Sequence record: OR437326.1
Strand: one strand, 5' to 3'
Origin: Escherichia phage iGC_PHA_EC001
Length of the DNA stretch: 64,000 nt
In this document: positions 6,685 to 59,746 of the stretch, piece after piece
How the letters are laid out: every line of letters starts with the position of its first letter
How positions within the stretch are numbered: position 1 is the first letter of the stretch
Translations under genes and position numbers: made by a program
Notes under the pieces: model-generated
Databases searched by the model: none
What the model saw: the letters and a program-made list of their open reading frames with translations, nothing else
What the model was told of the DNA's origin: nothing

Positions 6685-7077
6685 ATGAATCTAAAGACTA
6701 AAACTGTATTGAGTTTTGTTTTAATTGTTGTTCTTATTCTTGCCGGAATGTTTGCTTATAACAAGATACGTGAGTCTGGCTACAAAGATGGTGTTGCCTA
6801 TCAAACGCAAGTATATCAAACAGCCCAAGCAAAAGCAAAACAAGATTTTGATGTTCTTCAAAAAAGAGCAGATGAAGAAAGAGCATTATTAAATACTCAA
6901 ATAAACAACTTGTCTAAAAACAATGCACAATTAAAAGCAGATTTAGAGAAGAAGAAACAAACGATCAATGAGGATACAACGAATTATGCAAAAACTAATT
7001 CTGGCAGTATGTCTTGCTTTGCCCCTAATGATGACGGGTTGTTCATCATCAACAAAAGTTTCCCCAGTTCTTATTGA
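6685..7077 (+). CDS. i-spanin (Rz-like inner-membrane spanin subunit)
   Basis: N-terminal transmembrane helix (VLSFVLIVVLILAGMFAY) then long coiled-coil periplasmic domain; o-spanin gene overlaps its 3' end in another frame. Confidence 0.6.
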   Translation: MNLKTKTVLSFVLIVVLILAGMFAYNKIRESGYKDGVAYQTQVYQTAQAKAKQDFDVLQKRADEERALLNTQINNLSKNNAQLKADLEKKKQTINEDTTNYAKTNSGSMSCFAPNDDGLFIINKSFPSSY

Positions 7078-7312
7078 TGAGTGTAAGGCTGTAGCCATAG
7101 AAAAGGTTAAAGGTCCAGATTCGGACTTGATGGATAAAGTATCGACACCTGTGCCATACACTAAAAATCAAATTGCAAAAGGGGTTAGTAGATCTGAAGT
7201 TGTTAACAACCAAACTCAAAACAATGCTCTTTGGGAGCAAGATAGACGAAAGGTTCTAGGTTTACAAACATATATTAAAACACTGCAAGAAAAAGGTATT
7301 ATTGCTGAATAA
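6968..7312 (+). CDS. o-spanin (Rz1-like outer-membrane lipoprotein); start may be ATG at 6986
   Basis: Signal peptide plus lipobox (LALPLMMTG|C), Pro-containing mature part with a second Cys; begins inside i-spanin gene in a different frame. Confidence 0.55.
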   Translation: MRIQRIMQKLILAVCLALPLMMTGCSSSTKVSPVLIDECKAVAIEKVKGPDSDLMDKVSTPVPYTKNQIAKGVSRSEVVNNQTQNNALWEQDRRKVLGLQTYIKTLQEKGIIAE

Positions 7313-22331: not shown

Positions 22332-22745
22332 GTGACAACTTATTCTAAAACAACAAGGTCTACAAGTAACACTGGCTACAGTGCAGTTTATCTGGAGGAC
22401 CATTCTACTTATTTTGCATGGTACCTGAAAACTGAAGAGTATCCTGATCAAACATATACAGTTACATTGGATGGAGTTGATTATGACATTCGTTTAAGGT
22501 GGAACACTAGGGACGAGTCTTGGCAATGTCAGATTGGATTATCTGGAGATGATCCAAGTATAAGTTTCAAAGTTACAAATGGTTTAGATCTTCTTAAACC
22601 TTATAAATATCTTGAAAGTGTGCCAGATGGTCAATTGTATATAGTAGATACAGTCAAGATTAATGGTCGTCCTGGGTATACAACTACAGGTCGAGATAAA
22701 CGTTTTGTATTGGTTTATATTGATAACAAACCTAATCAGGCGTAA
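22332..22745 (+). CDS. hypothetical baseplate/tail protein (137 aa)
   Basis: GTG start with GGAGG upstream. Confidence 0.4.
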   Translation: MTTYSKTTRSTSNTGYSAVYLEDHSTYFAWYLKTEEYPDQTYTVTLDGVDYDIRLRWNTRDESWQCQIGLSGDDPSISFKVTNGLDLLKPYKYLESVPDGQLYIVDTVKINGRPGYTTTGRDKRFVLVYIDNKPNQA

Positions 22746-22754
22746 GGAGATAAT

Positions 22755-23765
22755 ATGGCAGAAAGAGAGTATACAAAAGCTCCTGCCCCTAATTTAAACA
22801 GGGCATACAAATTATTAATTGGTTCTGCCACAAACACAATACAGAAGAGAACTAAGAACTCGGCATTTAAATCTACAGTAGATTTGGATACCAAGTTAGG
22901 GACAACAGAAAAATCCTCTTCTAATTTGTATTTGTTGCAAGACCATCAAATAACCTTCAGTATTAAGAAAGATAATAACAAAGATCCTAACCAAGCAGAG
23001 ATTGTAGTTTATAACCTTTCGGATGATACTGTTAACTATATAAACCGTGGTATCCGAAATAACTTGGCTGTTGCTTTAGCGGTAGGATACGAAGGTGAAG
23101 AGTTGGTTATGATCTTCAAAGGAACTATCCAGTGGGTTAGTGATACTTTTGACTCGGTAGACAGGAAAACCACTTTACACTGTTTGGATGGCGGTATTAA
23201 CATTGCAGAAGCAAGAACAAGCCGCAGTTATCCAAAAGGAACTAAAATCAAACGTGTTGTGACAGATTTGGTAAAGGATTTAGGAACTACAGAAGGTAAT
23301 ATACACGTAGATAATGATCAAACCTTATCTTCAGCAACAGCTATGTGTGGAAACACTTCACATTACCTAGAACATATTTGTAAAAGTATTGATCACAATG
23401 TGTCAATACAAGATGGGTCTGTTTATGTCACTCCTCGTTCACAAATGTCTAGTGCACGTAGCGCCTATATTAGCCCTGAAACTGGTCTGATAGGAAGTCC
23501 AGAACCATTCCACAACGATATAAAACCTACTAAAAAAGTTACCAAATCCTCTAAGAAGGCAAAGAAACCTACAGATGGTGTTAAATTCAAATGCCAAATG
23601 AATGGTGCAATATTACCAGAAAAAACAATCTGGTTAAAAAGCCGAGATTATGATGGTCCATTTAAAGTAGTTTCTGTTTCTCACAACGGAGATAAAGAAG
23701 GTAAAGAGTGGGTTACTGAAGTGGAATGTGTATCCGTGTCTGAAATAATGACTAAGGAGAAATAA
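22755..23765 (+). CDS. hypothetical baseplate protein (336 aa, possible hub/gpD-like)
   Basis: Position and size only. Confidence 0.35.
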   Translation: MAEREYTKAPAPNLNRAYKLLIGSATNTIQKRTKNSAFKSTVDLDTKLGTTEKSSSNLYLLQDHQITFSIKKDNNKDPNQAEIVVYNLSDDTVNYINRGIRNNLAVALAVGYEGEELVMIFKGTIQWVSDTFDSVDRKTTLHCLDGGINIAEARTSRSYPKGTKIKRVVTDLVKDLGTTEGNIHVDNDQTLSSATAMCGNTSHYLEHICKSIDHNVSIQDGSVYVTPRSQMSSARSAYISPETGLIGSPEPFHNDIKPTKKVTKSSKKAKKPTDGVKFKCQMNGAILPEKTIWLKSRDYDGPFKVVSVSHNGDKEGKEWVTEVECVSVSEIMTKEK

Positions 23766-28484: not shown

Positions 28485-30638
28485 ATGAAACAAGCTATAT
28501 TTACTGTCACGCGAGACAAGAGAGTAAATGCGAGTTCATTTAACTACACGACTGTTGACGGAACAGCAGTCGCTGGTAGAGATTATATTGCAAAATCGGG
28601 AACACTTGTGTTCCCTGATGATGCTGATTCTGCTACTATTGTGGTTGAAGTATTTGAACGACCAAAGAACTCAATAGATCTTAACTTCTCCCTCCAAGTT
28701 TCAGGGATTAGTCAAAATAACATGATGGTTGAAACAACCATCAATTGTATTATAACTACTATCCAAGAAAATACTACTCCAATAACTTGGACTACAAAAG
28801 ACGTTAAAATGTTCTCTCCTATGTATTGGACAATAGATTCTCAAGCAACGGAAAGTTGTTCTATTGTATCTCATGGAGGCTCTTTTACTGCAAGATTTGT
28901 AAACAGAACAACAGCAGGTTTGGCAGGGGTTATCTGGAGCACAGTTGACAAATATGACCATAAAGGTGTTGGGTATTTACCCCACACAGATTTAAGTTCA
29001 GAGAAACTTTGGTTTAAAATGGAAATTAGTCAAAACATGCCAGGTTTTAAAGAAGAACCTTTGGTGCCGACTTTGACTGTAACTCTCCTGGATAAAAGTG
29101 TTCATTATGTCAGTTTAGGATTCTATGCTTCAGATATTTCAGAAGATGGTAAAACAGCCACAATCAAGCTAGATTTTGGTAATATCTTTTCTGGCCCTAA
29201 TAATGATATTCCTTTGGATATGAGTGCCGTAGACAATATTTTCTTCTCTTTGATTACAGCAAGGTATGAAGAAATAGAGGAGATTGTACCTATTGATAGT
29301 CAAGAGGCTTGGTTTACTTTCACTCTTCTTGAACCTACTTCTGGTTACAGTATGATGAAAGTCAGCAACCTTGTCCAGCCTGAACATGATATTCGCATGT
29401 GCACATCTTATGATGATATGTATAACCTGACTCCAGAGAGAGTTATTTATAATACATATGCACTAGGTTATCGTGGGATGATTAACCATTATAACGGAAT
29501 GTCTCACTATTATGAGTTCTCATGGAATGGAACATCTTGGGCTTTAAATAAATCTGTTTTCCTGAATCCGGCTACAGAAGCTTGGCTTAACAGCTTCCAT
29601 TCTATAGCAAACGAGAAGGGCTACACAATAATGAACTCTTTAAGTTTTGAATTGATGAGCACAGTTTGTCCTGTAGAATGGGTCCAGCATGATTGGAACG
29701 ATGCTCTTGCAGCAACAGGGTATAAACCTCCTAGTTATGTGTTGTCTCCAACTATTGACGAAGGTATGGAATATTTGCAAAATGTTATTAATAAAATAGC
29801 ATCTATTTCGCAAGCTAATAATATTCCAGTTGTCATTCAAATTGGTGAGCCTTGGTGGTGGTATAATACAGCAAGTAAAATGCCTTGCATATATGATTAC
29901 ACTACCAAACTGGCATTCAACACAGAAACAGGTTTATTTGCACAAGATGCAGGAACAATAGATAATTATAAAACAGGAACGCCGTTTGACGAATACTATG
30001 CATTTTTGTCTCGTAAACTAGGATTAAGAGTTACAAAGTTTGCAACAGACACTAGAGCAACCTATCCAGGAGCTAAAGTAACATTGCTTCCGTTCTTACC
30101 GTCAATTATTGGCAACGGTTTGATGGAGAAAGTTAACTTTCCGTCTGATTACTACATTCCTGAAACTTTTGATTTTTACTGTTCAGAGTGTTACGACTGG
30201 CTTCTGGAAGGTAAAATGATGAAAGCATTCGATGCAATTACCATACCACATGAAAAATTAGGTTTTGAATATTCTGATATTCACTATCTTTCGGGTTTTG
30301 TTCCAGATGCTACTCTTGCACCTTTGTATGGCTTCGATCCTGAATCAAACTACCGCACGTATCTTTGGAAAATGATTATAGGTAATATAGTGTTGAACGC
30401 CAATAAGTTCAATGGGCTTACACAATATATATGGGCCTATCCTCAAATAATGCATGATTCCATCACGGTAGTTAATTCTCAATCCCAAGTTTTCTATATG
30501 GGTAATGTGCCTTTGAATTGTTATTTGCAAGATATCACTCTTAAACAAGCAAATGTTGAGATTGCTACCATAAGTGGAATTACATTAGCTACTAAATCTG
30601 GAGAAGATTTAGTAACAACACAAAAATTTTATATATAG
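28485..30638 (+). CDS. large tail-associated protein (717 aa), function unknown
   Basis: ORF track; strong RBS; same inserted block. Confidence 0.35.
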   Translation: MKQAIFTVTRDKRVNASSFNYTTVDGTAVAGRDYIAKSGTLVFPDDADSATIVVEVFERPKNSIDLNFSLQVSGISQNNMMVETTINCIITTIQENTTPITWTTKDVKMFSPMYWTIDSQATESCSIVSHGGSFTARFVNRTTAGLAGVIWSTVDKYDHKGVGYLPHTDLSSEKLWFKMEISQNMPGFKEEPLVPTLTVTLLDKSVHYVSLGFYASDISEDGKTATIKLDFGNIFSGPNNDIPLDMSAVDNIFFSLITARYEEIEEIVPIDSQEAWFTFTLLEPTSGYSMMKVSNLVQPEHDIRMCTSYDDMYNLTPERVIYNTYALGYRGMINHYNGMSHYYEFSWNGTSWALNKSVFLNPATEAWLNSFHSIANEKGYTIMNSLSFELMSTVCPVEWVQHDWNDALAATGYKPPSYVLSPTIDEGMEYLQNVINKIASISQANNIPVVIQIGEPWWWYNTASKMPCIYDYTTKLAFNTETGLFAQDAGTIDNYKTGTPFDEYYAFLSRKLGLRVTKFATDTRATYPGAKVTLLPFLPSIIGNGLMEKVNFPSDYYIPETFDFYCSECYDWLLEGKMMKAFDAITIPHEKLGFEYSDIHYLSGFVPDATLAPLYGFDPESNYRTYLWKMIIGNIVLNANKFNGLTQYIWAYPQIMHDSITVVNSQSQVFYMGNVPLNCYLQDITLKQANVEIATISGITLATKSGEDLVTTQKFYI

Positions 30639-30646
30639 GAGTAAAA

Positions 30647-32878
30647 ATGTCAACTACAATTACTAATTTACCCGAAACATCAAAAGTTAATGATTCTGAT
30701 TACCTGGTTTTAGACCAACCTGATAAGACTGTTAAAAGCACAGTTTCCAACTTTCTTACTGACACTGGGGTGGTTTTAGCCACCCAGTTGAAAGATACAG
30801 ATGGAGCAGATTTAATACAATCCTCAAATGGTAATACTGTTCAGGAAGAGTTGAATAACAATCTTCTTAATGATCGTGAACAGTGGCGTCGTAGTCTTGC
30901 CGAGGCTGGGTTAACTCTTGTTGATGGTAGTTTTGAAGAAGGGGCTACAGTGGGCAGTGTAACTGATGCTGTCTGGTACATAGCGGGTGCTCAGTGCTAC
31001 ACATGGGGGTCTGGTTTCCCTAAAGATGTACCACCTAAATCAACCCCGACATCAACCGGTGGAGTAGGTGTAGGGGCGTGGATATCAGTTGGGGATGCAT
31101 CGCTGCGCAGCCAGCTACACAGCCCATCGCTACCAGGAACATCGCTAATCAAACACTCTGACGGCAAGACTGTTCAGCAGGAACTCAACAGCATTCTTTC
31201 CGTCCATTCGCGCGTTTTCAGCGTTGATGACCCGCAGTTTGCTGGCGGTGCAAAAGGTGACAGCAACGGCACGGCAGGTAATGGTACAGACGATACGGCA
31301 GCTATTTATGCTTGCTTCCAGGCTGCAATTGCTGCTGGTGGTGGGAAGATTGTCTTCTCCCCTGGTAAGATATATCGGACGACATACACCGTCTTATACG
31401 GCAGCAACATGGTTATCGATATGCAGGGAGCGTCAATTTTCTTTGATGTCAAGCCGAATGACGGCTCTGTGTTCATGCCAGACTCCTTCCAGTCTTACAC
31501 CAAATTCACGACCGATGTGATTTTTATGAACGGCCAGATTAACGGCAGAACCGGTGCCGGTAACGGTATCGGTGCTAACCGTGCTCGCCGCCTCACATTG
31601 TTTAACATTGGTAGTAAATATCTACATTGGCACCTGTTTGACGGTGCTGGCGCACAGCAGGTTAAAATCATTAATTGCTGGTGTGAGGGGACTAACTCTA
31701 CTCCTTTCCAGGTTGATAACGCCACTTATGATAAGGCATCGTGGGGTATAGACGCATCGGGAAATGTACTTCCCATATCATTCGACGCAACAGGGGTCGG
31801 AGGATGGTCTAACTGTCGTGACGTGCTGATTATGGGATGCACTGTAAGGAATGCCCTTTATTCATGTGTGCATATTCATAATACCAATAACCAAAATATT
31901 CAGGTTATTAACTGTCATTTTGAAAATTCTAAGGCAGGTGTCTTTGCAGATAACAACGCAACATTTATAACCACTAATACATTAATTCAGGGGTGTACCT
32001 TCATAAGATGTACTAATCCTATCAGTTGGAGTGGTGGTTTTAATGTACTGCGTATTCTGGATAACAACTTCTACGGGGAAAACAATACTACCTGGTATTA
32101 CGGTATTCGCATCCTCTTAGCTGCTGCCGGTACTTTGAAAACACTAGCAATTAAAGGTAATACCTTCACTGGATTGTACCGACCTATCATCGTTAATGGT
32201 GTACTTGGGTTTGCGGTTGACGATAACGTATTTCAAACATGTGGCGGGACAACACCACCTTCGTCAGGCGGTGTCATTACCGCTGAAAACCCGTTGTCCA
32301 TAGTTCGTCTGTCCGGGTGCAAAAGTGGCACAGCAGCAAATAACGTGTTCCAGGATTGCAATGACCCAGTATGTATATCTGTGGCAAGGGACCAAGTAGA
32401 TTCGTCATACTCTTCGTCTGTAGAAGTTAATGGGAACATCTCCCGTGCTTCTGGATGCTTGTTGTCGCTACACTATGCGGACCGTTGCACGGCAAGAGAC
32501 AACAAATACATTGGCTTGGCAACAGACTTCTACGGCATCTACGTTGGTGAGACATCCTTAGCTTGTGTTATTGATGGGTTCTATTGCTCGCAGGGTAGCG
32601 GTCAGGCTGTGCATGTCAATGGTGGCCCCCGTCACGTAGTCCGAGATGTTGTGGCTTTCGGGACTGACACCACAAAGGCAGCAATTGTCTTCCACAACAC
32701 CAACACTGCAAGGTCTATGGACAATGTGGTAATGGGGGGTTACTTGTCTTCTGGATACATCTTGTTATCCGGTACTACCGTGAACTACGTTGGTGATGAA
32801 CCAAACATGACTATTGCCAAGCAAGATACGGCAACAGGCGTGAAGGTTGTCTACACGAAAGCGGCAGTGCAAAACTAA
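30647..32878 (+). CDS. tailspike / depolymerase with pectate-lyase-like beta-helix
   Basis: Motif GDSNGTAGNGTDDTAAIYACFQAAIAAGGGKIVFSPGKIY matches the pectate-lyase-3-type start of a right-handed beta-helix; N-terminal region shares a motif with fibre gene 40732. Confidence 0.55.
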   Translation: MSTTITNLPETSKVNDSDYLVLDQPDKTVKSTVSNFLTDTGVVLATQLKDTDGADLIQSSNGNTVQEELNNNLLNDREQWRRSLAEAGLTLVDGSFEEGATVGSVTDAVWYIAGAQCYTWGSGFPKDVPPKSTPTSTGGVGVGAWISVGDASLRSQLHSPSLPGTSLIKHSDGKTVQQELNSILSVHSRVFSVDDPQFAGGAKGDSNGTAGNGTDDTAAIYACFQAAIAAGGGKIVFSPGKIYRTTYTVLYGSNMVIDMQGASIFFDVKPNDGSVFMPDSFQSYTKFTTDVIFMNGQINGRTGAGNGIGANRARRLTLFNIGSKYLHWHLFDGAGAQQVKIINCWCEGTNSTPFQVDNATYDKASWGIDASGNVLPISFDATGVGGWSNCRDVLIMGCTVRNALYSCVHIHNTNNQNIQVINCHFENSKAGVFADNNATFITTNTLIQGCTFIRCTNPISWSGGFNVLRILDNNFYGENNTTWYYGIRILLAAAGTLKTLAIKGNTFTGLYRPIIVNGVLGFAVDDNVFQTCGGTTPPSSGGVITAENPLSIVRLSGCKSGTAANNVFQDCNDPVCISVARDQVDSSYSSSVEVNGNISRASGCLLSLHYADRCTARDNKYIGLATDFYGIYVGETSLACVIDGFYCSQGSGQAVHVNGGPRHVVRDVVAFGTDTTKAAIVFHNTNTARSMDNVVMGGYLSSGYILLSGTTVNYVGDEPNMTIAKQDTATGVKVVYTKAAVQN

Positions 32879-32938
32879 GGAGCACCCAGCCATTTACATT
32901 GATTGATGAAAGCGCCAACTGCTGTCACTATTGATAAG

Positions 32939-32963
32939 CACCCCGCTCCGGCGGGGTGTTTTA
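32939..32963 (+). terminator. intrinsic terminator after tailspike gene
   Basis: CACCCCGC-TCCG-GCGGGGTG followed by TTTTAAAA. Confidence 0.6.
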
Positions 32964-32987
32964 AAACTACAACATGAGGACTAACCC

Positions 32988-33293
32988 ATGAATAAGATGT
33001 TCACACAGCCCACTGGCCCAGTGGCTAAACAGGTTAATAAACAAGCCATTGCCCGTAAGTTTGGTGTTAAGCAGAATGAAGTAGTCTACTTTGCTGTAGG
33101 TGCTGTACTAAGTGGATATAAGATTATCTATGATAAGGAGACGCAAAGGGCGTATTCCCTACCTGCTGATATTGCCCCAGGTACTACTGCCATTAGTCTT
33201 AGTGCTACTGTACTTGTGCATTCAGCGGGTTCTGTAGACCTTGGGGAATTAGCTGTATATCGTGATTTAAAAAGTAATGAGAACGCACTATGA
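32988..33293 (+). CDS. small protein paralogous to an internal module of tailspike 37617..40670
   Basis: About 70 residues align with residues ~228-300 of the 1017-aa protein (IARKFG...SVDLGELAV vs IARKYG...SVDLSALAV). Confidence 0.45.
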   Translation: MNKMFTQPTGPVAKQVNKQAIARKFGVKQNEVVYFAVGAVLSGYKIIYDKETQRAYSLPADIAPGTTAISLSATVLVHSAGSVDLGELAVYRDLKSNENAL

Positions 33294-33532
33294 GAAAATT
33301 TTTAATAGGTATGTTCTGTACATATCCTGATAATAAAGTCAGTTCTACGAAAGTCTGGAACGCTGTAGGCATGTCGGTTATGACAGGCATGTTTATCTTT
33401 TTAGGAATAGAAAAAGAAATTCCTGAATGGATGGGTTGGGCTTTTGTTTTCATGATAACTCCTTCTCGCCTCATGAAAAATCTTATTGATTTACGCTGGG
33501 GCAGATCACAATCTACCAAAGAGGATGACTAA
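33290..33532 (+). CDS. putative holin (class II-like, two transmembrane segments)
   Basis: 80 aa with two hydrophobic stretches and a charged C-terminal tail (KNLIDLRWGRSQSTKEDD). Confidence 0.35.
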   Translation: MRKFLIGMFCTYPDNKVSSTKVWNAVGMSVMTGMFIFLGIEKEIPEWMGWAFVFMITPSRLMKNLIDLRWGRSQSTKEDD

Positions 33533-35019
33533 TGGACGAATATGGTTTGACAGATGCGGGATTTGTAATCCCGACTTTTGACGATGTTTTAAACAACTAC
33601 ATGACAGCAGTAAAAAACACATTTGGTGCAGATGCAGCCACTTCGGAAGATACTGTAATCGGACAACTGTTTAGAATAATTGCATACACAGATTACACAT
33701 TGTGGGAAGGTATGCAAGGTGTTTATAATACTCAAACACTAGATGGTGCAGAAGGTATTTATCTTGACGAAATCTTTTCTAAACGCGGTTTCTATCGAGC
33801 AGGGGCAGCAGCAAGTACAGGTTATGCCTATGTTAAGAGTAATAACAAAGCAGCTTGGACTTATGAGCTAGGCACGGATATTTACTTCAACTCTGATAGT
33901 GATATGAACTACTATGTTAGCACACCGACTATGTTGAATGCTAAGATTGCAGCTTATCAAATCTCTCGTGCTAATGCAACTGCTACAGGTGTTCCAAATA
34001 TTACTTTTTATGCACAAAGTGCGGTAGATGGAGGACTAAACAGTAAAACACTTGCACCTGGTTCTTCTACATTTATAACCGATCTTGAAACTTTTATCAA
34101 GGCAAATTTAACAGAAGCTGATCGTAGTCTTGTATTTTCTGATTCAGGTAACTTATCAATTGGTTTTACTTCTTTAACTAGTGATACTCCAGTGGGACTG
34201 GTAACTCCTATTAAATTTTATGCTAGTGTTCCGGTTGGAACCAAGTGGAGTGAGATTCCGGTAGTTGCAGCAGAGAAAGGATACAACCCTGTTGGCGTGG
34301 AGTCTATTACAGGGATATCTTCTACCTTTACAGGTTATCTTGACAGTGGTAACTTTTATTCATTTTCTCCTGGTCGGGATGTTGAGACAGACGCAGAATT
34401 CCGCTCTCGTTTCAATGACAACGTTGATGAAGCTAACGCAGGGACACGAGCAGCTATTGTGAAAGCTCTGCTACTTACAGATGGTGTTACTAAGGTGAAG
34501 ATTTATGATAACCCTACATTACATGATCAAGAACATGCTCCAGCTATGACTTTCCAGACTATAGTTTATGGTGGCAGTGCAGAAGAAATTGCAAATGTTA
34601 TCTATAAAACCAAACCAATCAACACTTTGACACATGGAACAACCAACATAACTGTTACAACAGAAGACGGAGGACAAGAAATTATTCGCTTCTCCCCTGG
34701 TGCTTCTGCTATGTATTCTGTAAAACTTGTTTATCAAACTGTCAACGGAACAACTTTAAGTGGAACAGAAAAACAAAACATCGTAGAAGCTTTACAAAAC
34801 CTGCAAGCTTACTTTGAATTAGGTTCTTCAGTAACGAACGATCAAATCAAAGGTGTTATTTATGCAGCACTTGCTTTTGGACGCTTGACTTCTCTTCGTG
34901 TTTATGTTAAACTTAATACTGAGGATGACAGTAAATATACAGAGAATAATATAGTTCCTGCTTATAATGTTGTCCCTTCTTTTGACCTTGATAACATTTC
35001 TTACGAGTATGGAGTGTAA
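33532..35019 (+). CDS. putative baseplate J-like protein
   Basis: 495 aa followed by a gpI-sized gene and tail fibre genes (P2-like J-I-H-G order). Confidence 0.4.
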   Translation: MDEYGLTDAGFVIPTFDDVLNNYMTAVKNTFGADAATSEDTVIGQLFRIIAYTDYTLWEGMQGVYNTQTLDGAEGIYLDEIFSKRGFYRAGAAASTGYAYVKSNNKAAWTYELGTDIYFNSDSDMNYYVSTPTMLNAKIAAYQISRANATATGVPNITFYAQSAVDGGLNSKTLAPGSSTFITDLETFIKANLTEADRSLVFSDSGNLSIGFTSLTSDTPVGLVTPIKFYASVPVGTKWSEIPVVAAEKGYNPVGVESITGISSTFTGYLDSGNFYSFSPGRDVETDAEFRSRFNDNVDEANAGTRAAIVKALLLTDGVTKVKIYDNPTLHDQEHAPAMTFQTIVYGGSAEEIANVIYKTKPINTLTHGTTNITVTTEDGGQEIIRFSPGASAMYSVKLVYQTVNGTTLSGTEKQNIVEALQNLQAYFELGSSVTNDQIKGVIYAALAFGRLTSLRVYVKLNTEDDSKYTENNIVPAYNVVPSFDLDNISYEYGV

Positions 35020-35021
35020 AA

Positions 35022-35651
35022 ATGGCAGTGAGTGTTGACCATGTAACAACTTGGGCCAGTATCAATGAAGACGTTAAAAACCTTCTGATTGAAGATTTTA
35101 AATCTTCTCCTAACATTGTCAAGCTCCTCTACATCGTATCCAGTGAAAAGCAAAAGATAGATCAGGCAATGATCTATCTTGCTAAACACCGCTTGATCTC
35201 TACAGCTACAGGCAAATACCTAGATATTCTAGGGGAAGAAATGGGGATCGAACGTAATGGCTCTGATGATGAAGAGTATAGAACAATATTAAAAATCAGG
35301 GCTTACCGCGTAGCCTCATCGGGGACTCGTGGTGACATAATTGATATCTTCGCCCGTTTCACAGGAACAGAACGTGAAACGCTTAATACTTACGTAGGTT
35401 TGAATAAAACCTTTGATGTGTTTTTCTACAACCTGTGTCTTCAATCTGATCAAGCTTTAGAGCAGTTGCTAAGTGTTTTCCCTATTATTAGTAGCTACCG
35501 TCTTGGAGCAAAAGCAGGATCAGCTTTTGGTTTTAGTTCTTATTATGCTACCAAACCGCCTCATGGTATTGGTGGTTTAGGTTCCCTGTACATGGAATCT
35601 ACTGGGGATGAAACAGGACGCATGTGTACGCTTCTCAAGCAAATAGATTAA
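35022..35651 (+). CDS. putative baseplate protein (gpI-like)
   Basis: 209 aa directly after J-like gene. Confidence 0.4.
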   Translation: MAVSVDHVTTWASINEDVKNLLIEDFKSSPNIVKLLYIVSSEKQKIDQAMIYLAKHRLISTATGKYLDILGEEMGIERNGSDDEEYRTILKIRAYRVASSGTRGDIIDIFARFTGTERETLNTYVGLNKTFDVFFYNLCLQSDQALEQLLSVFPIISSYRLGAKAGSAFGFSSYYATKPPHGIGGLGSLYMESTGDETGRMCTLLKQID

Positions 35652-37277: not shown

Positions 37278-37613
37278 ATGGAATTTCAAGAAGCATGGGG
37301 ACTTGCAAAGGATGCAATAATCCCTTTAATCGGAGTCATCTGGTTCTTTTTCAAACAAAAAATGGATAAATTCGGCTCTGATCTTGAGGAAATGGAGGAG
37401 AAAAGTCGAGAGCTAGAGAAGAAGTTGGTCTTTGTTGAATCAACTTATGCAACTAAAGCCGAACTTACCCAGATGCTAAATCAAATTAACTCTACATTAA
37501 TGGCAAATAATAACACCCTTGAGCAAAAAATTGAAAAGATTATGGACCTCAAGAATGCGACTATCCAAATGATGCTAGATGACATAGTTAAACGTACACA
37601 GAATAAGGGGTAA
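37278..37613 (+). CDS. small membrane-anchored coiled-coil protein (111 aa)
   Basis: N-terminal hydrophobic helix AIIPLIGVIWFFF followed by charged helical region. Confidence 0.4.
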   Translation: MEFQEAWGLAKDAIIPLIGVIWFFFKQKMDKFGSDLEEMEEKSRELEKKLVFVESTYATKAELTQMLNQINSTLMANNNTLEQKIEKIMDLKNATIQMMLDDIVKRTQNKG

Positions 37614-37616
37614 TTA

Positions 37617-40600
37617 ATGGCAACATTCCCAACATATCCAGCAACGTCTCTCGAACAGGGCGTAGATCTGGTTATTTTCTCATCTAACCAACTCCATGAT
37701 GTTATTAATGGAAGTGCTACAGAGAGTATTGAAACAGAATCAGGGTTGATACCAACCCTGAGAAAAGCCCTTGTTGACAACTTTTTCTTTAAAAGCCCAT
37801 TAGATTGGGCGCAAGGCACAAACGAAACAGTTTTTAACCAACTTCGTTATTTCCAGAATGGAGTATTGAGCGGTTATTACTATGCTCCTAACGCTACATT
37901 GGTTAACCCAATCCCTATGCAAGGGACTCCAGTAGGAGATAACAACTGGGTATTGTGGGGACTGAAAACAGAACAATTAGCAACAGAAGTCACCCCGTGG
38001 GTATACTCTGGTGCAACTGGTTATGAAACAGTAATTAGTCCTCCTTACATCTTTGATAGTGCTATTGTTACGATCAATGGTGTTATTCAGGTTCTGGGGG
38101 AAGCTTTCCGTATAGAAGACAGTAAGATCATCTTATCTGAACCTTTGGGACACGATCCTGCAACAGGACTGCCAAACAAGCTTTTTGCTTATATTGGTAA
38201 AATCGTAGCTTCAGCAGATACAGATCCTAATCTAGAGAACCGTCTTGTTAGTTTAGAAACAAAAACGGAAGAACTAACAGAAAGCATGGATAAAGTCCCT
38301 CTGCAAACTATTGCTCGTAAGTATGGTTTGTTAGATGATGAGGTGGCTTACGCAACAGCAGGTCAATCGTTAACAGGGATTAAAGCTCTGTATGATCCGG
38401 TAGCACAGTCTTCCTACACATTACCTCCTAACATCACAGGAACTTTAACATCCTTATCTGTTTCTGGAGTAATGACTTATTCTGGAGGATCTGTAGACCT
38501 TTCTGCACTGGCTGTTGAGCGTGGACAGTTTGTTCATTTGCCTACAAGCTTTGGTAATAACGTAACTCTGACAGCTAAAAATCAGACGATTGGACGTGGT
38601 GCTGGTCGTTATCGTTGGGCTGGAAGTTTACCAAAAAGTATTTTGGCCTCTGATACATTGGAGACAAGCGGAGGATTAGGTCCAAATGCATGGGTTCTGA
38701 CTAATACAGAAGGACTGTTAACCCCTCGTGGTGGAACATACAACGATCTATTCGATGTTGTCTACTTGTCAGAATTTGCTAACAATACAACTACCTATAC
38801 CACACCAGAAGCAGCTTTCCAGGCGGCACTGTTAGCAGCAAAAGCTTCGAAAAGCAAGATTCTCGATGCTTACGGTTGCGACATGACTTTCACGACAAGC
38901 TCTTTTGATATTCAAGATATCACTTTGCGTGGTGGTGTGTTCCGTGGTCAACGCGATTATCGTGTGCAGAATGCTACAATAGAAGGCACAACTTTCCGTA
39001 ACTCTCGTGTTATGTATTGGGGTGGTGCTGTGCGCATGTTCGATTGTTTGTGGGACGGTGCTCCTCGCGCAGGTCAAGTTGGTAGCTTGGTATTCCAAGG
39101 CAACCCAATATCAGGTACTTTTGAAATTGATAACTGTACTTTTAAAAACGGGTTGTATGGCATCCTTCAACAAGGAACAGGGGAACCAGTAACACGTGGT
39201 GTCTTCCGTAACCTTACCTTCATGGACATGCAAGGTGATGCAATAGAACTGAACGTCATCAATAAACATTATGACGATGGTTGTGTGATTGAGAATATTT
39301 ACCTGTCTAATATCGATGGGACTAACGCTCCTATTCCTCTGTCCAACTGGGGTATCGGTATCGGTATAGCTGGTAAAGGACCATATGGTTACGGAATCCC
39401 TGATGATCAATATTGCAAGAATATTACAATTCGTAACGTTTTTGCAAAACGTTGTCGTCAGATTGTCCACGTAGAAGTTGGTCGTAATATCTCTATCGAA
39501 AACATTCATGGCGATCCAGACCAGACCGTATCTGTTGGGACAGGTTTGGCAACTGGCGCAGTTGTAATGTATGGAAGTAAAGATTTTACGATTGACGGTG
39601 TTTACGGAGAGCCTAAAACAGACGGTAGCACACTTGCAAGTAATATCCGTATGATTTATTTGGAGTGGGGAACTAACGCAGTTCTGGACGAAGAGGGTAA
39701 TCCGGTAGTTCCGGCACAGGGTAGACCTTCAAACCCATGCTTTAACTATTCTGTTCGTAACATTCACACCAAAACTGGGCGTGTTTTTGCGGGAGTTTCC
39801 GCTGGGCCAGGTTATGAAAACAGAGTTAGCTTTGAAAATATTCGTTGCGCTGCATTGCAGTTGTTCGGTATAGCTTCTTGGCTTTCAATGTCTAACATCA
39901 CCTGTAATATCTTCGACTGTGTTGGTCAACCTGAATCTGGTCCAGGGACATTTTATGATGGATTCTTCCGTAGAGAAAAATCTGTTCTTGAAATGGTTAA
40001 CGTAAACTGTTACCCAGATGGCAAGACGATGGTTACTGGTCGTCCACAGTGGAGCCGTTGCCGTTACTCGGATATTCATCGTGTCAACTGTAATGTTGAA
40101 GCTAATATGTATACCAATATCGCAGGTGGTATTGGAGCTATTGTAGGGACAACGGGCAAAGTTTATTACTTAGAGCCTAATCCTAGTCGAAACATTGATG
40201 GAATGCATTTCCCAACAGGGAAAGAGTTTGACAAAGGTGATATGATAGTCAAGGCGGATAATACGTTCTTCCTTGTAACAACAAGTGGGGCATATATTCC
40301 AGATATCCCAGCTTTCGGTATTCGAGCTACACAGGCAGGAGATACCTTCCTGACACAGAACTTGACTCCTAACGGGACAGCAACAAATGCTTCTTGGTTG
40401 TATCATTACCCTCTGTCAGCAGGGACACGTATCCGTATTCCTGGTGCTGGCGTAGGTGGAGCAGATTTGGACACAGTTATTACTCGTGCACCTTATCAAG
40501 ATAATGATACGTGGACTAACCCAGTTAAAATAGACATTGCAGATCCAATTGTAACGCCTACAAGTGCTGGAGTTAGAATTAAAACCATACCTAATGATTC

Positions 40601-48648: not shown

Positions 48649-51600
48649 TCAATGACATGTGGCCCAAGAGTTACCCACATCATATCCGGCAGTAAGCTGA
48701 ACGTTAAGATTGTAAAATTCTCCAGCCTTAGTAACAGCTAAAGCAGCAAGTTCTCCTGCCCGACTATAAGCTGTAAACCATCCACCTTTGGGAGATTCAT
48801 GAATGTTAGCCCAAATTTGTCCCGTTTCTTTTTCCTTATTATGCTTCCATTCTTCAACTTTAGCAAGGCATTCTTTATCAATTTTCTTTTGTTCTTCGGG
48901 ATCGTCTACTTTCTTCCAACCTAATGATTCAGGTGAAAACCATTTAAATTCTACAAGGTTACGAGAAACTTCAAGCTGGGCTTCATCGTGATATGCAATC
49001 ATTTGTTGCACGAAATCTTTATTCTTCCAGTCATCTTTAAAGAAGTCAACACTTAGTCCTTCTTCTTCGATCATGTCGTCATAAATAACCATTGCACGTT
49101 TAGCACAGATAACCCCACCACTTTGGAACAGAGAGTTAAGAATCGCGTGAGCAGAACGAGTAGGAACCTTACGACCGTCAATACCCAAAACATATTGTTT
49201 ACCAGTCTTAACCCAAAAATCGTTTAAACGTTCTTTAAGACGCGCCAATGGGAATGCAGCTTCCCAGAAAGCATCAAACACCAATTGACCTGTAAACTTA
49301 TCGCTACCAATTGTTTTAGCAACCTTGTCGGCTTGTGCACCATAGGTAATACCATACTTAACAGATTTAGCAGGACTACGTTCAAATTTACGTCCAATAG
49401 TTTCAGTAATACGTTTTGCCATCATTGTGTGAACATCATTAGGTTTCTCTAACAACAGAGCGTTACAATACTCGTGTGGCTCCGGCTCGTACCGCCAACA
49501 GTTTCCTGTGATGGTAATGCAGTCTTTCTGACGCATGACCCACGTACCAAGTTCTGTTTGTGGACACCAAACATCCTCTACACCCCACTCTTCAATAGTC
49601 AAACTTTGAACAGGAATGTGAGAGCGGTTAGTCAATGTTGCCACTTTTACTTTCTGCTCTTTTGTATTGAAAGCTACAGAGATATTGCCTCCATGCACCA
49701 GGTACGAGGCAGTTAAAGCTGCTTCAAAAAGTTCACCTGGGTTCTGCGCCCAACGCCAAACAGGTTTTTGTTTATGTTCGTGCCAGTAACCATCTGCAAT
49801 CAAGAAACCTTCCAAGAAAGCTACACGCTCGGCATGAGACATATTAACTACACGTTCTACCCACGGAACATCCCATTTACCTTGTTGAACAGAAGTTAAA
49901 CTATTTACCTGATCTTGTTCCATGTTAAATGGAGCATTACAAATAATGTTATCTCCTGTGCAAAGCTCGGCAGTTGTTCTGACTTTAGGCACATAAGTAT
50001 TCCCTTTACTACGGGTATTAACATACCAACGGTGATCTGCTGTTGCACGGTAAGTGTGTGATTTCCCTTTAATCTCAAACGTCTTACTATTTTTATAGAA
50101 GACCTTACCTTTTACTTTAGTCCATTCTTTCAGACCTGTTTCAGCATTGTACCCTAAAATCTCATCCCCTTCCTTCAGGTCGTGATATCCTACCCAACCT
50201 TTACGAGTCAAAGCTTGAGCATCCATCGGCACACAGTAGTGTGATTCAATTTTTGCTTCCAAAGAGTCGAAGTCGTAGCCGATCTGGAAGTATTTAGGAA
50301 CCTCTACACCAAACAAGTTACGCATCTCCCACCCAAACAAAGATGTGACACGAGGAATATTAGCTACAGATCTATGCTTCATACGAGAGGTTGCAGCATC
50401 ACATGTAGCGGCTGGGGTAGGAATACGCCCATCCGCCCTTACTGCGGCTAAGAAACCTTTATCGTATTCTTGATCTTCTTCATCTTCTTCCCAATCAGCA
50501 CCGCCACCTAAAATAGAGTTCCTACGATGCTTATACGTTAAGTATTCTACAATCTGTGTAGCATAAGGAAACTTCTCACTCAAAGCTTGCAGGTTAGGAC
50601 AAATTTCTTTTTCCTGACCTTTGGTAAAACACGGGTTAGTCAATACTTTAAGACCGCGACCTTTACCTTTTGCTATACGCTCTTGAATCTTCCTTTCCAG
50701 GGTTTCCGGTGTGCACTCCAGATGATCACAACGATCCTGACAAAAATTAGAAGATAGAGTTTGCTCAACGTAAGCTCGGATACCTTTCTGAAGTTCTTCC
50801 TCGCTCTTTTTAATCTTGGTGCCAGATTTAAGAGTCAAGTCTTTATCTTTATATTCAGACGGTACCCAACCTAATCCTACAAGCCAGTTTTTAATATGGG
50901 TTGTATCGTTTAATGTTGCAGGAATGTTAGGATCACATAGAGGTTCATCTGCTGCAACTGGCAGTTTCCACTCTTTCCCCAACATAACTAACCACCAATC
51001 GCCATCCCTCTCTTCCAAATGACCATCATGTTTCTTAGCAAAATTGATCATATGGTTAGTTGGCTCTAAGTTCTTTTTAATTTGCAACTTAGGTGGAATA
51101 AAAGCCTTAAGATAACCTTTTGTTGCTGGTTTAGGTGGCAAAATAGGCTCAACGAGTAAACGAAGACGCTCCATTTCTGCATCCAAAAAAGCAAGGTTCT
51201 CTTCTGCTTGTTTCATGTTAAAAGCAAACCCACGGTGTTCCTGGCGTGTAATAATGTCTGCTACACGTTGTTCAAGTTCAAATGGACCTTCCCATTTATC
51301 ATAATCACCCCATTCTTCCATAAGGTAATTATATACACTTGTATTGGCTTTGTTGTCATAGATACAGTAATAAAGCATATCCGCAGCAAAAGTCTTAAAT
51401 CGATCTTCTTCTGGAATCTCTTTACGGAAATCTATTTTTACATCACCACCTGCTTTTCGAGAAAGTGCTGCCAAACTATGTCCTGATTTGCCCTCAATCT
51501 TTCGATCTGGGTTTAACACTTTACTCAAAATCAAGGAGTCAATAAGTTTTACCTTATTTTTGCCCCACGTATTATATTTAACACTGTAATCTAATCCATA

Positions 51601-59224: not shown

Positions 59225-59746
59225 TTAACTCCCCTTTGGTAGATAGAAACCATGCACTTTATCTCGATAAACAAGACGCATATCACGTTCCCAGTGTGTC
59301 CTTATATTCCGTTTCTTGAAGTATAGAGCACCTTTAGTAACATCTAAAACAGACCGCAATTCAGGAAAATGTTTCTCTAAATAAAGTAAACGCTCCGCTA
59401 TTGCTTTTGCTTCCTGCCACTTATCTTTCTCTGTTACGTTAAAAGTTTTCGCATATGAGAATTGTCCTTTCTGGAACAAGACTCCTCTGACTGTGTTAGG
59501 GAAGTAGGTATCATTTCTTCTGTTGATTACCACATTCCCAACGGCATTCATTCCTTTTTTACCCAGACCGCGACCTTCTGCGTAAATTGCACAAGCTAAT
59601 AGAATTTTATCATTATATTGCTTTGTACATTTGTGAACTACTTTAGCGGTTTTTACGTTTGCAGCTTCGGCTTTCGCCACAACAGGTGTAAATGTAAAAG
59701 CAGTTAAGGATAGTAACGCAACTGTTACAAAGTTTTTTATCAGCAA
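59225..59746 (-). CDS. secreted cell-wall hydrolase (SleB / Hydrolase_2-like), candidate signal-peptide endolysin
   Basis: N-terminal signal peptide ending AKAEA; core ILLACAIYAEGRG...GMNAVGNVVINRRND..FPNTVRGVLFQKGQFS matches the SleB-type hydrolase signature. Confidence 0.55.
   Translation of the reverse strand: MLIKNFVTVALLSLTAFTFTPVVAKAEAANVKTAKVVHKCTKQYNDKILLACAIYAEGRGLGKKGMNAVGNVVINRRNDTYFPNTVRGVLFQKGQFSYAKTFNVTEKDKWQEAKAIAERLLYLEKHFPELRSVLDVTKGALYFKKRNIRTHWERDMRLVYRDKVHGFYLPKGS

Follow-up and report, generated by a model that had tools for sequence, protein, structure and literature searches.

ORF80, a small predicted membrane protein gene in the tail-fibre/baseplate region of a Phapecoctavirus, is a candidate holin gene

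The DNA analysed here (64,000 nucleotides of Escherichia phage iGC_PHA_EC001, record OR437326.1; hereafter the window) belongs to a Phapecoctavirus, a phAPEC8-like myovirus of the Stephanstirmvirinae. At 33290..33532 on the + strand it contains an open reading frame with an ATG start that encodes 80 amino acids, which we call ORF80. The first-pass annotation had placed this frame between a paralogue of a tailspike module and a baseplate J-like gene, and profile matches bear this out on both sides. Directly 5' of ORF80 is a 101-aa ORF (32988..33293, +) that comprises a tailspike N-terminal anchor module only: it matches positions 328-420 of phrog_7992 (E 1.5e-52) and also aligns with positions 1-92 of many tailspike PHROGs. 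On the 3' side, a 495-aa Baseplate_J-like protein (33532..35019, +; PF04865, E 4.2e-8; phrog_6, E 6e-42) is encoded by a baseplate wedge gene that, by position, is the counterpart of phi92 gp145. Codons overlap on both sides of ORF80: its ATG with the stop codon of the 101-aa ORF (ATGA), and its TAA with the ATG start of the wedge gene. No terminator-like site was found on the + strand from 30000 to 35508. ORF80 appears from its sequence context to sit within a late tail/baseplate operon, with probable late timing and translational coupling.

The 2.2 kb surrounding ORF80 is 94-98% identical to many Phapecoctavirus phages, including 96.8% identity to anhysbys (NC_052656). Homology break-points between Phapecoctaviruses fall at 33290, the start of ORF80, or slightly upstream, and ORF80 retains 93-100% identity among close relatives while the neighbouring tailspikes are swapped. 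The 101-aa ORF stops exactly where ORF80 begins, as though exchange of a tailspike cassette had left it behind, either as a remnant or as a free-standing docking module.

ORF80 matches PHROG 1322 ('membrane protein') with an E-value of 1.8e-27, residues 1-80 aligning with profile positions 3-82 of 87, and tblastn detects homologues in 371 phage records; judged by these comparisons, the 80-aa gene called in the first reading of the DNA is therefore a true gene and not a chance ORF. A longer antisense ORF (33205..33519, −) has no PHROG or homologue support of this kind. Orthologues in RefSeq relatives are likewise annotated as 'membrane protein', and the PHROG category of phrog_1322 is 'moron, auxiliary metabolic gene and host takeover'. 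Homologues occur in Phapecoctavirus, Justusliebigvirus (phi92), Vequintavirus (rV5) and Seunavirus (PVP-SE1), and further carriers are found in Certrevirus (phiTE, CB7), Aeromonas Plateaulakevirus, and phages of Erwinia and Serratia. Since none of the 185,579 bacterial and archaeal genomes covered by a pattern scan yielded a relative, the family is so far met almost wholly in phages; one 37.8-kb Mu-like IMG/VR contig that carries a relative may come from an isolate genome. Many records named 'Campylobacter phage' (MG0656xx) share 97% identity with Phapecocta- or Vequintaviruses of E. coli, and are therefore probably mislabelled or contaminant.

We examined the features of the predicted protein. 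An alignment-based AlphaFold2 model of moderate confidence (mean pLDDT 68) contains helices at residues 2-9, 19-41, 46-56 and 59-69, with a kink at the conserved Pro58. The additive Hessa ΔGapp is +2.4 kcal/mol for residues 22-40 and +8.5 kcal/mol for residues 48-66, and family-wide the values range from +2.4 to +7.9 for the first segment and from +4.0 to +9.8 for the second, which contains a conserved proline together with Lys/Arg. By comparison, the most hydrophobic segment of other small membrane proteins of the same genome has a ΔGapp of between −6.2 and +0.7, with the exception of gp095 at +5.5. The values of the ORF80 segments lie within what we take, from the phage 21 S sequence, to be the range of signal-anchor-release (SAR) domains. 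Application of the positive-inside rule suggests that both termini would be cytoplasmic (N-in/C-in). In the last 12 residues (69-80, RWGRSQSTKEDD) three positive charges are balanced by three negative ones, so that the tail is charged but net neutral and not basic; across the family the C-tails are variable, hydrophilic and frequently very long and charged. Family-conserved motifs are found before helix 1 (S18-x-T20-K21-x-W23), at the turn (E46-W47) and after helix 2 (L68-R69-W70-G71).

The first-pass annotation had proposed a holin from two hydrophobic segments and a charged C-terminus, taken as the hallmark of class II holins. The two predicted helices and the charged tail stand, whereas the hydrophobicity is weak, the tail has no net charge and the rV5 supplement gives no transmembrane domain (TMD) for gp29, the rV5 homologue of ORF80. 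Since the hydrophobicity is marginal and the C-tail non-basic, these grounds by themselves are weak. Nor is there a dual-start motif, the N-terminus reading MRKFLIGM with Met8 replaced by Leu in relatives. A Pfam scan of ORF80 and of sets of 27 and 10 relatives gave no holin family and no significant family of any kind; the best holin match in the family was to Phage_holin_9, for one relative (E 0.13). PF10841 (DUF2644) has precomputed matches on four ORF80-family members, a likeness that ORF80 itself does not share: by direct hmmscan the best DUF2644 score in the family was E 0.036 and ORF80 had no match at E <= 10. Literature searches for DUF2644 or PF10841 returned nothing relevant. Mu gp18, gp19, gp20 and gp24 were considered as DUF2644 proteins and rejected, as they have no DUF2644 match. 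A BFVD fold search with the ORF80 model, of low confidence, recovered only one family member and unnamed proteins.

In every large-phage lineage the ORF80-family gene lies within the tail-fibre cluster, and the gene directly 3' of it varies by lineage, being a wedge gene, one of various fibre genes, or none. A scan of IMG/VR for the family gave 69 loci, and the 28 closest were used for gene-order counts. The usual order at these 28 loci is short fibre, fibre-assembly protein, a TM plus coiled-coil protein (~104-120 aa, with the TMD at its N-terminus), a protein with 4-5 TMDs (~152-157 aa, PHROG 7451), the ORF80-family member and a large fibre. The TM plus coiled-coil partner is found no more than four genes upstream of the family member at 26 of the 28 loci, and a multi-TM gene stands between the two at 21 of the 28. 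In Phapecoctavirus the module is split, with the partner, ORF111, placed after the fibre-assembly gene. A search of the window phage for the PHROG 7451 protein, whose gene stands between the other two in Seunavirus and Certrevirus, found none. In Salmonella phage SPLA5a, an unannotated 157-aa multi-TM ORF (locus L005, 4452-4925), flanked by the TM/coiled-coil gene and the ORF80 homologue, has homology to CB7_34 (PHROG 7451). In Aeromonas phage phiA009 an unannotated 146-aa multi-TM ORF (L004, 4439-4879) occupies the same position, with undetectable homology.

Some family members, of 127-168 aa, have a third TMD at the N-terminus and a long C-tail rich in charges, a difference like that between class I and class II holins. 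An unannotated 127-aa member with three TMDs lies beside the DNA polymerase gene of Stenotrophomonas phage Moby (L085, 4836-5219, +); it is antisense to the annotated CPT_Moby_033, which may be a mis-call, and an annotated terminator then follows. Because the Moby member adjoins gene 43, identity with T4 Imm was considered and rejected (hhalign probability 0.2%; Imm is far more hydrophobic). Three-TMD variants of 159-168 aa whose tails are very long and acidic or basic (L064, 4863-5357, and similar loci L049-L059 and L063-L074) are found on contigs of 120-150 kb, some apparently from human-associated metagenomes. ORF calling is fragmentary around several of these loci, and at the one locus checked, L064, the variant is the lone + strand gene amid − strand replication genes.

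Distant members of PHROG 1322 are carried by small, often high-GC phages, with E-values of 1e-12 to 1e-24 for all those scanned, whether in lysis cassettes or elsewhere. A profile built from the large-myovirus members alone scores the small-phage cassette proteins at 40-72 bits. In at least ten unrelated small phages, Mu-like and others, the family member adjoins an endolysin gene, with six enzyme types represented and spanin genes usually alongside. The 37.8-kb Mu-like contig (L048) has the order Phage_lysozyme endolysin, 82-aa protein, family member, i-spanin with embedded o-spanin (lipobox LMAGC), TM plus coiled-coil protein, winged-helix protein, Mu gp27-like small terminase and large terminase. 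Elsewhere the family member adjoins an endolysin of the Amidase_2 (L044), Phage_lysozyme (L045, L072), Peptidase_M15_4 (L047, L061), Peptidase_M15_3 (L062) or GH108 plus PG_binding_3 (L066) type, or a DUF5675 protein (L046). The isolated Mu-like Ralstonia phage RS138 has the family member as ORF27, between ORF26, which matches the PDB endolysin 7q47 (E 4e-32), and ORF28, annotated 'Rz protein'. The cassette stretches inspected in L044, L047, L061 and L066 contain no small membrane protein besides the family member. The small-phage homologues have endolysin and spanin genes as neighbours, and fibre genes are not adjacent. A small membrane protein beside endolysins of many unrelated enzyme types and spanins is the classical holin signature (R. 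Young), and it is this context that supports the holin-like character claimed for ORF80 in the first-pass annotation.

In the window phage itself, ORF80 is 26 kb away from the spanin genes and from the gene for a SleB-like endolysin. The i-spanin gene (Rz-like; 6685..7077, +) lies just 5' of the large terminase gene and is overlapped by the o-spanin gene (Rz1-like; 6968..7312, +), for which the lipobox LMMTGC was read from the anhysbys orthologue. The SleB-like endolysin (59225..59746, −) starts with MLIKNFVTVALLSLTAFTFTPVVAKAEA, a Sec signal peptide or SAR-like domain, and its gene has no membrane protein gene as a neighbour, in contrast to what is reported for Certrevirus CB7. In anhysbys, a 97%-identical relative, gp188 is a soluble T4-lysozyme-like enzyme. 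Given this lysozyme, the SleB-like endolysin and the spanins, the phage requires a holin, and the anhysbys genome annotation names none anywhere.

Published suggestions for the holin vary by genus. In rV5 the candidate is gp129 (PMC3606486), in Certrevirus CB7_82 was proposed (PMC7344957), and for the phi92-like phage BME3 the proposal is 'two small proteins of 61 and 81 residues' (PMC12210895), the larger of which probably corresponds to ORF80, whose homologue in that genus has 82 aa. gp129 resembles a textbook class II holin but is confined to Vequintavirus-type records (116 records), whereas ORF80 has homologues in all genera of the supergroup. At least six further small proteins with two TMDs, most of them far more hydrophobic than ORF80, are encoded in the same genome: gp037, gp068, gp072, gp095, gp150 and gp212. 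In anhysbys NC_052656 the six lie in small-ORF regions at 22641-22862, 37947-38123, 38911-39075, 49300-49506, 69420-69629 and 99995-100177. Each is a possible lysis, exclusion or host-takeover factor.

The partner, ORF111 (37278..37613, +; 111 aa), has an N-terminal TMD (~14-25) followed by a coiled coil of ~85 aa, and the positive-inside rule predicts an N-out/C-in topology. Among 135 matching phage records its sequence is 100% identical in nearly half, and 64 are at 99% identity or above. Orthologues in RefSeq relatives are labelled 'lipoprotein' (PHROG 15210/462), a label that is wrong because ORF111 contains no cysteine and hence no lipobox. ORF111 matches PHROG 462 (E 5.7e-7), as do the TM/coiled-coil proteins that occupy the position of Mu gp25 (releasin) in L044 and L045 (E ~1e-14), and this common PHROG is the sole tie between the ORF111 family and the gp25-position proteins. 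The PF10805 (DUF2730) model was not reached by ORF111 and its relatives, nor by the gp25-position protein of L048, and comparisons of ORF111 and its relatives with Mu gp25 by Pfam, BLASTP and hhalign (2.7%) were all negative. Since these direct tests were negative, we describe ORF111 as releasin-like in architecture and position, and not as a DUF2730 member. It probably modulates the membrane step of ORF80 from the cytoplasmic face.

How does ORF80 compare with known lysis systems? Class II holins and pinholins such as phage 21 S68/S71 and the LambdaSo HP1-family pinholin are ~70-90 aa, and ORF80 is similarly small. It also shares with them two helical segments in a predicted N-in/C-in arrangement, at least one of them weak and SAR-like, a hydrophilic charged C-terminus, a presumed late gene, and homologues beside endolysin and spanin genes. 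As in pinholin systems, it co-occurs with an endolysin bearing an N-terminal signal or SAR-like segment. Unlike these proteins, ORF80 has neither Pfam holin similarity nor a dual-start motif, its C-tail is non-basic, and its gene stands apart from the endolysin gene in the window phage. Phage 21 S has one good TMD, whereas both segments of ORF80 are weak and the second is Pro-kinked and contains Lys/Arg.

The first-pass annotation had drawn attention to T4 gene t, which lies beside tail-fibre genes 37 and 38. Like gene t, ORF80 is near fibre and fibre-assembly genes and far from the endolysin and spanin genes, and further points in common with T4 are the soluble T4-type lysozyme seen in anhysbys and an rIIB homologue in rV5. 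However, T4 T is a 218-aa protein with one TMD and a large periplasmic domain, it has no homology with ORF80, and its likeness to ORF80 is positional only. A third comparison is with the lysis cassette of Mu and its releasin gp25 (DUF2730; PMC9239132), which is resembled by L044, L045, L048 and L061 in the order endolysin, (family member), spanins, TM/coiled-coil protein, gp26-like and gp27-like proteins. ORF111 is similar to gp25 in size (~100 aa) and in predicted architecture and N-out/C-in topology. Unlike these four cassettes, Mu itself has no ORF80-family gene.

Taking the sequence evidence together, we put the chances at about even that ORF80 is the holin, or a core and indispensable part of the holin system, of the window Phapecoctavirus and of the rV5/phi92/phAPEC8/PVP-SE1/phiTE supergroup. 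Its membrane topology, late timing and hole formation would then fit the following scheme. ORF80 would be made late, translationally coupled within the tail-fibre/baseplate operon, and would enter the inner membrane as a hairpin of helices, its two termini remaining cytoplasmic. It would build up harmlessly until, at a set time or critical level, it forms oligomers that make the membrane permeable or depolarise it. This event would allow the soluble T4-type lysozyme to reach the wall and would activate the secreted SleB-type endolysin, and the spanins would complete lysis. ORF111, as a membrane-tethered cytoplasmic coiled coil of Mu-releasin-like architecture, would modulate the membrane step. 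Against a holin, besides the weakly hydrophobic helices, the non-basic tail, the lack of a Pfam holin match and the 26-kb distance from the spanin and SleB-like endolysin genes, stand the unbroken linkage to tail-fibre genes in every large-phage lineage, which a fibre-related role could explain, the ability of the Mu lysis cassette to do without any holin (PMC9239132), and the hydrophobic 2-TMD proteins elsewhere in the genome, any of which could be the real hole-former.

The last of these points leads to an explanation that we hold to be rather unlikely, namely that ORF80 is an antiholin, a timing regulator or a helper like LambdaSo Lcc6, and that another, more hydrophobic protein forms the hole: gp129 in Vequintavirus, and gp037, gp068, gp072, gp095, gp150 or gp212 in Phapecoctavirus. 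The weak, SAR-like segments of ORF80 would suit such a protein, and the conserved motifs SxTKxW and LRWG at the cytoplasmic face suggest specific protein contacts. Accessory small lysis proteins are known (10.1101/2024.01.23.576932), and the textbook-like gp129 and the several strongly hydrophobic 2-TMD proteins supply potential hole-formers. However, gp129 is limited to one genus, the other candidates are annotated in anhysbys in small-ORF regions outside the structural operon, and in the inspected stretches of four cassettes (L044, L047, L061 and L066) no small membrane protein other than the family member stands beside the endolysin.

The linkage to fibre genes could also mean that ORF80 is a membrane-associated assembly factor for the tail fibres or baseplate, or a minor virion component, with no role in lysis. 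In its favour are the position in the fibre cluster, directly 5' of a large fibre or wedge gene, in every large-phage lineage, the apparent translational coupling to the wedge gene, and the fact that phi92 fibre II is still unassigned. However, the near-atomic structures of phi92 (PMC13450770) and phiTE (PMC11972413) contain neither the ORF80 homologue nor the partner among the modelled baseplate and fibre proteins, and a PDB search with the ORF80-family profile matched no chain. CB7_35 lacks the 'MS/MS confirmed' note that neighbouring CB7 genes carry, and rV5 gp29, unlike its neighbours, has no MS evidence. As far as can be seen, and consistently across these four phages, ORF80 is not a part of the virion, although this is absence of evidence only, since small hydrophobic proteins are readily missed. 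The identity of the downstream gene differs between lineages, and the small-phage homologues adjoin endolysin and spanin genes with no adjacent fibre genes, both of which also speak against an assembly role. We regard it as improbable.

Superinfection exclusion or receptor masking (as by T4 Imm, T5 Llp or Cor), which the first-pass annotation had offered as an alternative and which the location of a small membrane protein gene beside receptor-binding protein genes and the PHROG category might suggest, is highly improbable, because ORF80 belongs to the conserved core of phages that use different receptors and infect Escherichia, Klebsiella, Salmonella, Cronobacter, Pectobacterium, Erwinia, Aeromonas, Stenotrophomonas and Ralstonia, is nearly invariant beside swapped tailspikes, lies in a probable late structural operon and not among early genes, is unrelated to T4 Imm (hhalign probability 0.2%), and has no relative in the bacterial and archaeal genomes scanned.

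Returning to the holin reading of ORF80, it is possible, and we advance it tentatively, that PHROG 1322 is an unrecognised, widespread holin family of two short, weakly hydrophobic (SAR-like) helices, acting as a two-part trigger with a releasin-like PHROG 462 partner. In the rV5/phi92/phAPEC8-type phages, the pair may be what is left of an ancestral lysis cassette once located after the tail-fibre genes, and may govern both a secreted and a soluble endolysin. If true, this would link the 'releasin' lysis control of Mu with the holin-dependent lysis of large virulent phages. Phages of the phAPEC8, phi92, rV5 and PVP-SE1 types are common candidates for therapy and biocontrol, and a single conserved holin candidate, with cassette context in unrelated phages, offers a directly testable answer where published suggestions vary. 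The annotation of several hundred genomes would also gain, as the gene is now recorded as 'membrane protein' or 'hypothetical' and its partner as 'lipoprotein'. If a weak hairpin and a releasin-like partner do act together, they would represent a new variation on how the timing of lysis is set.
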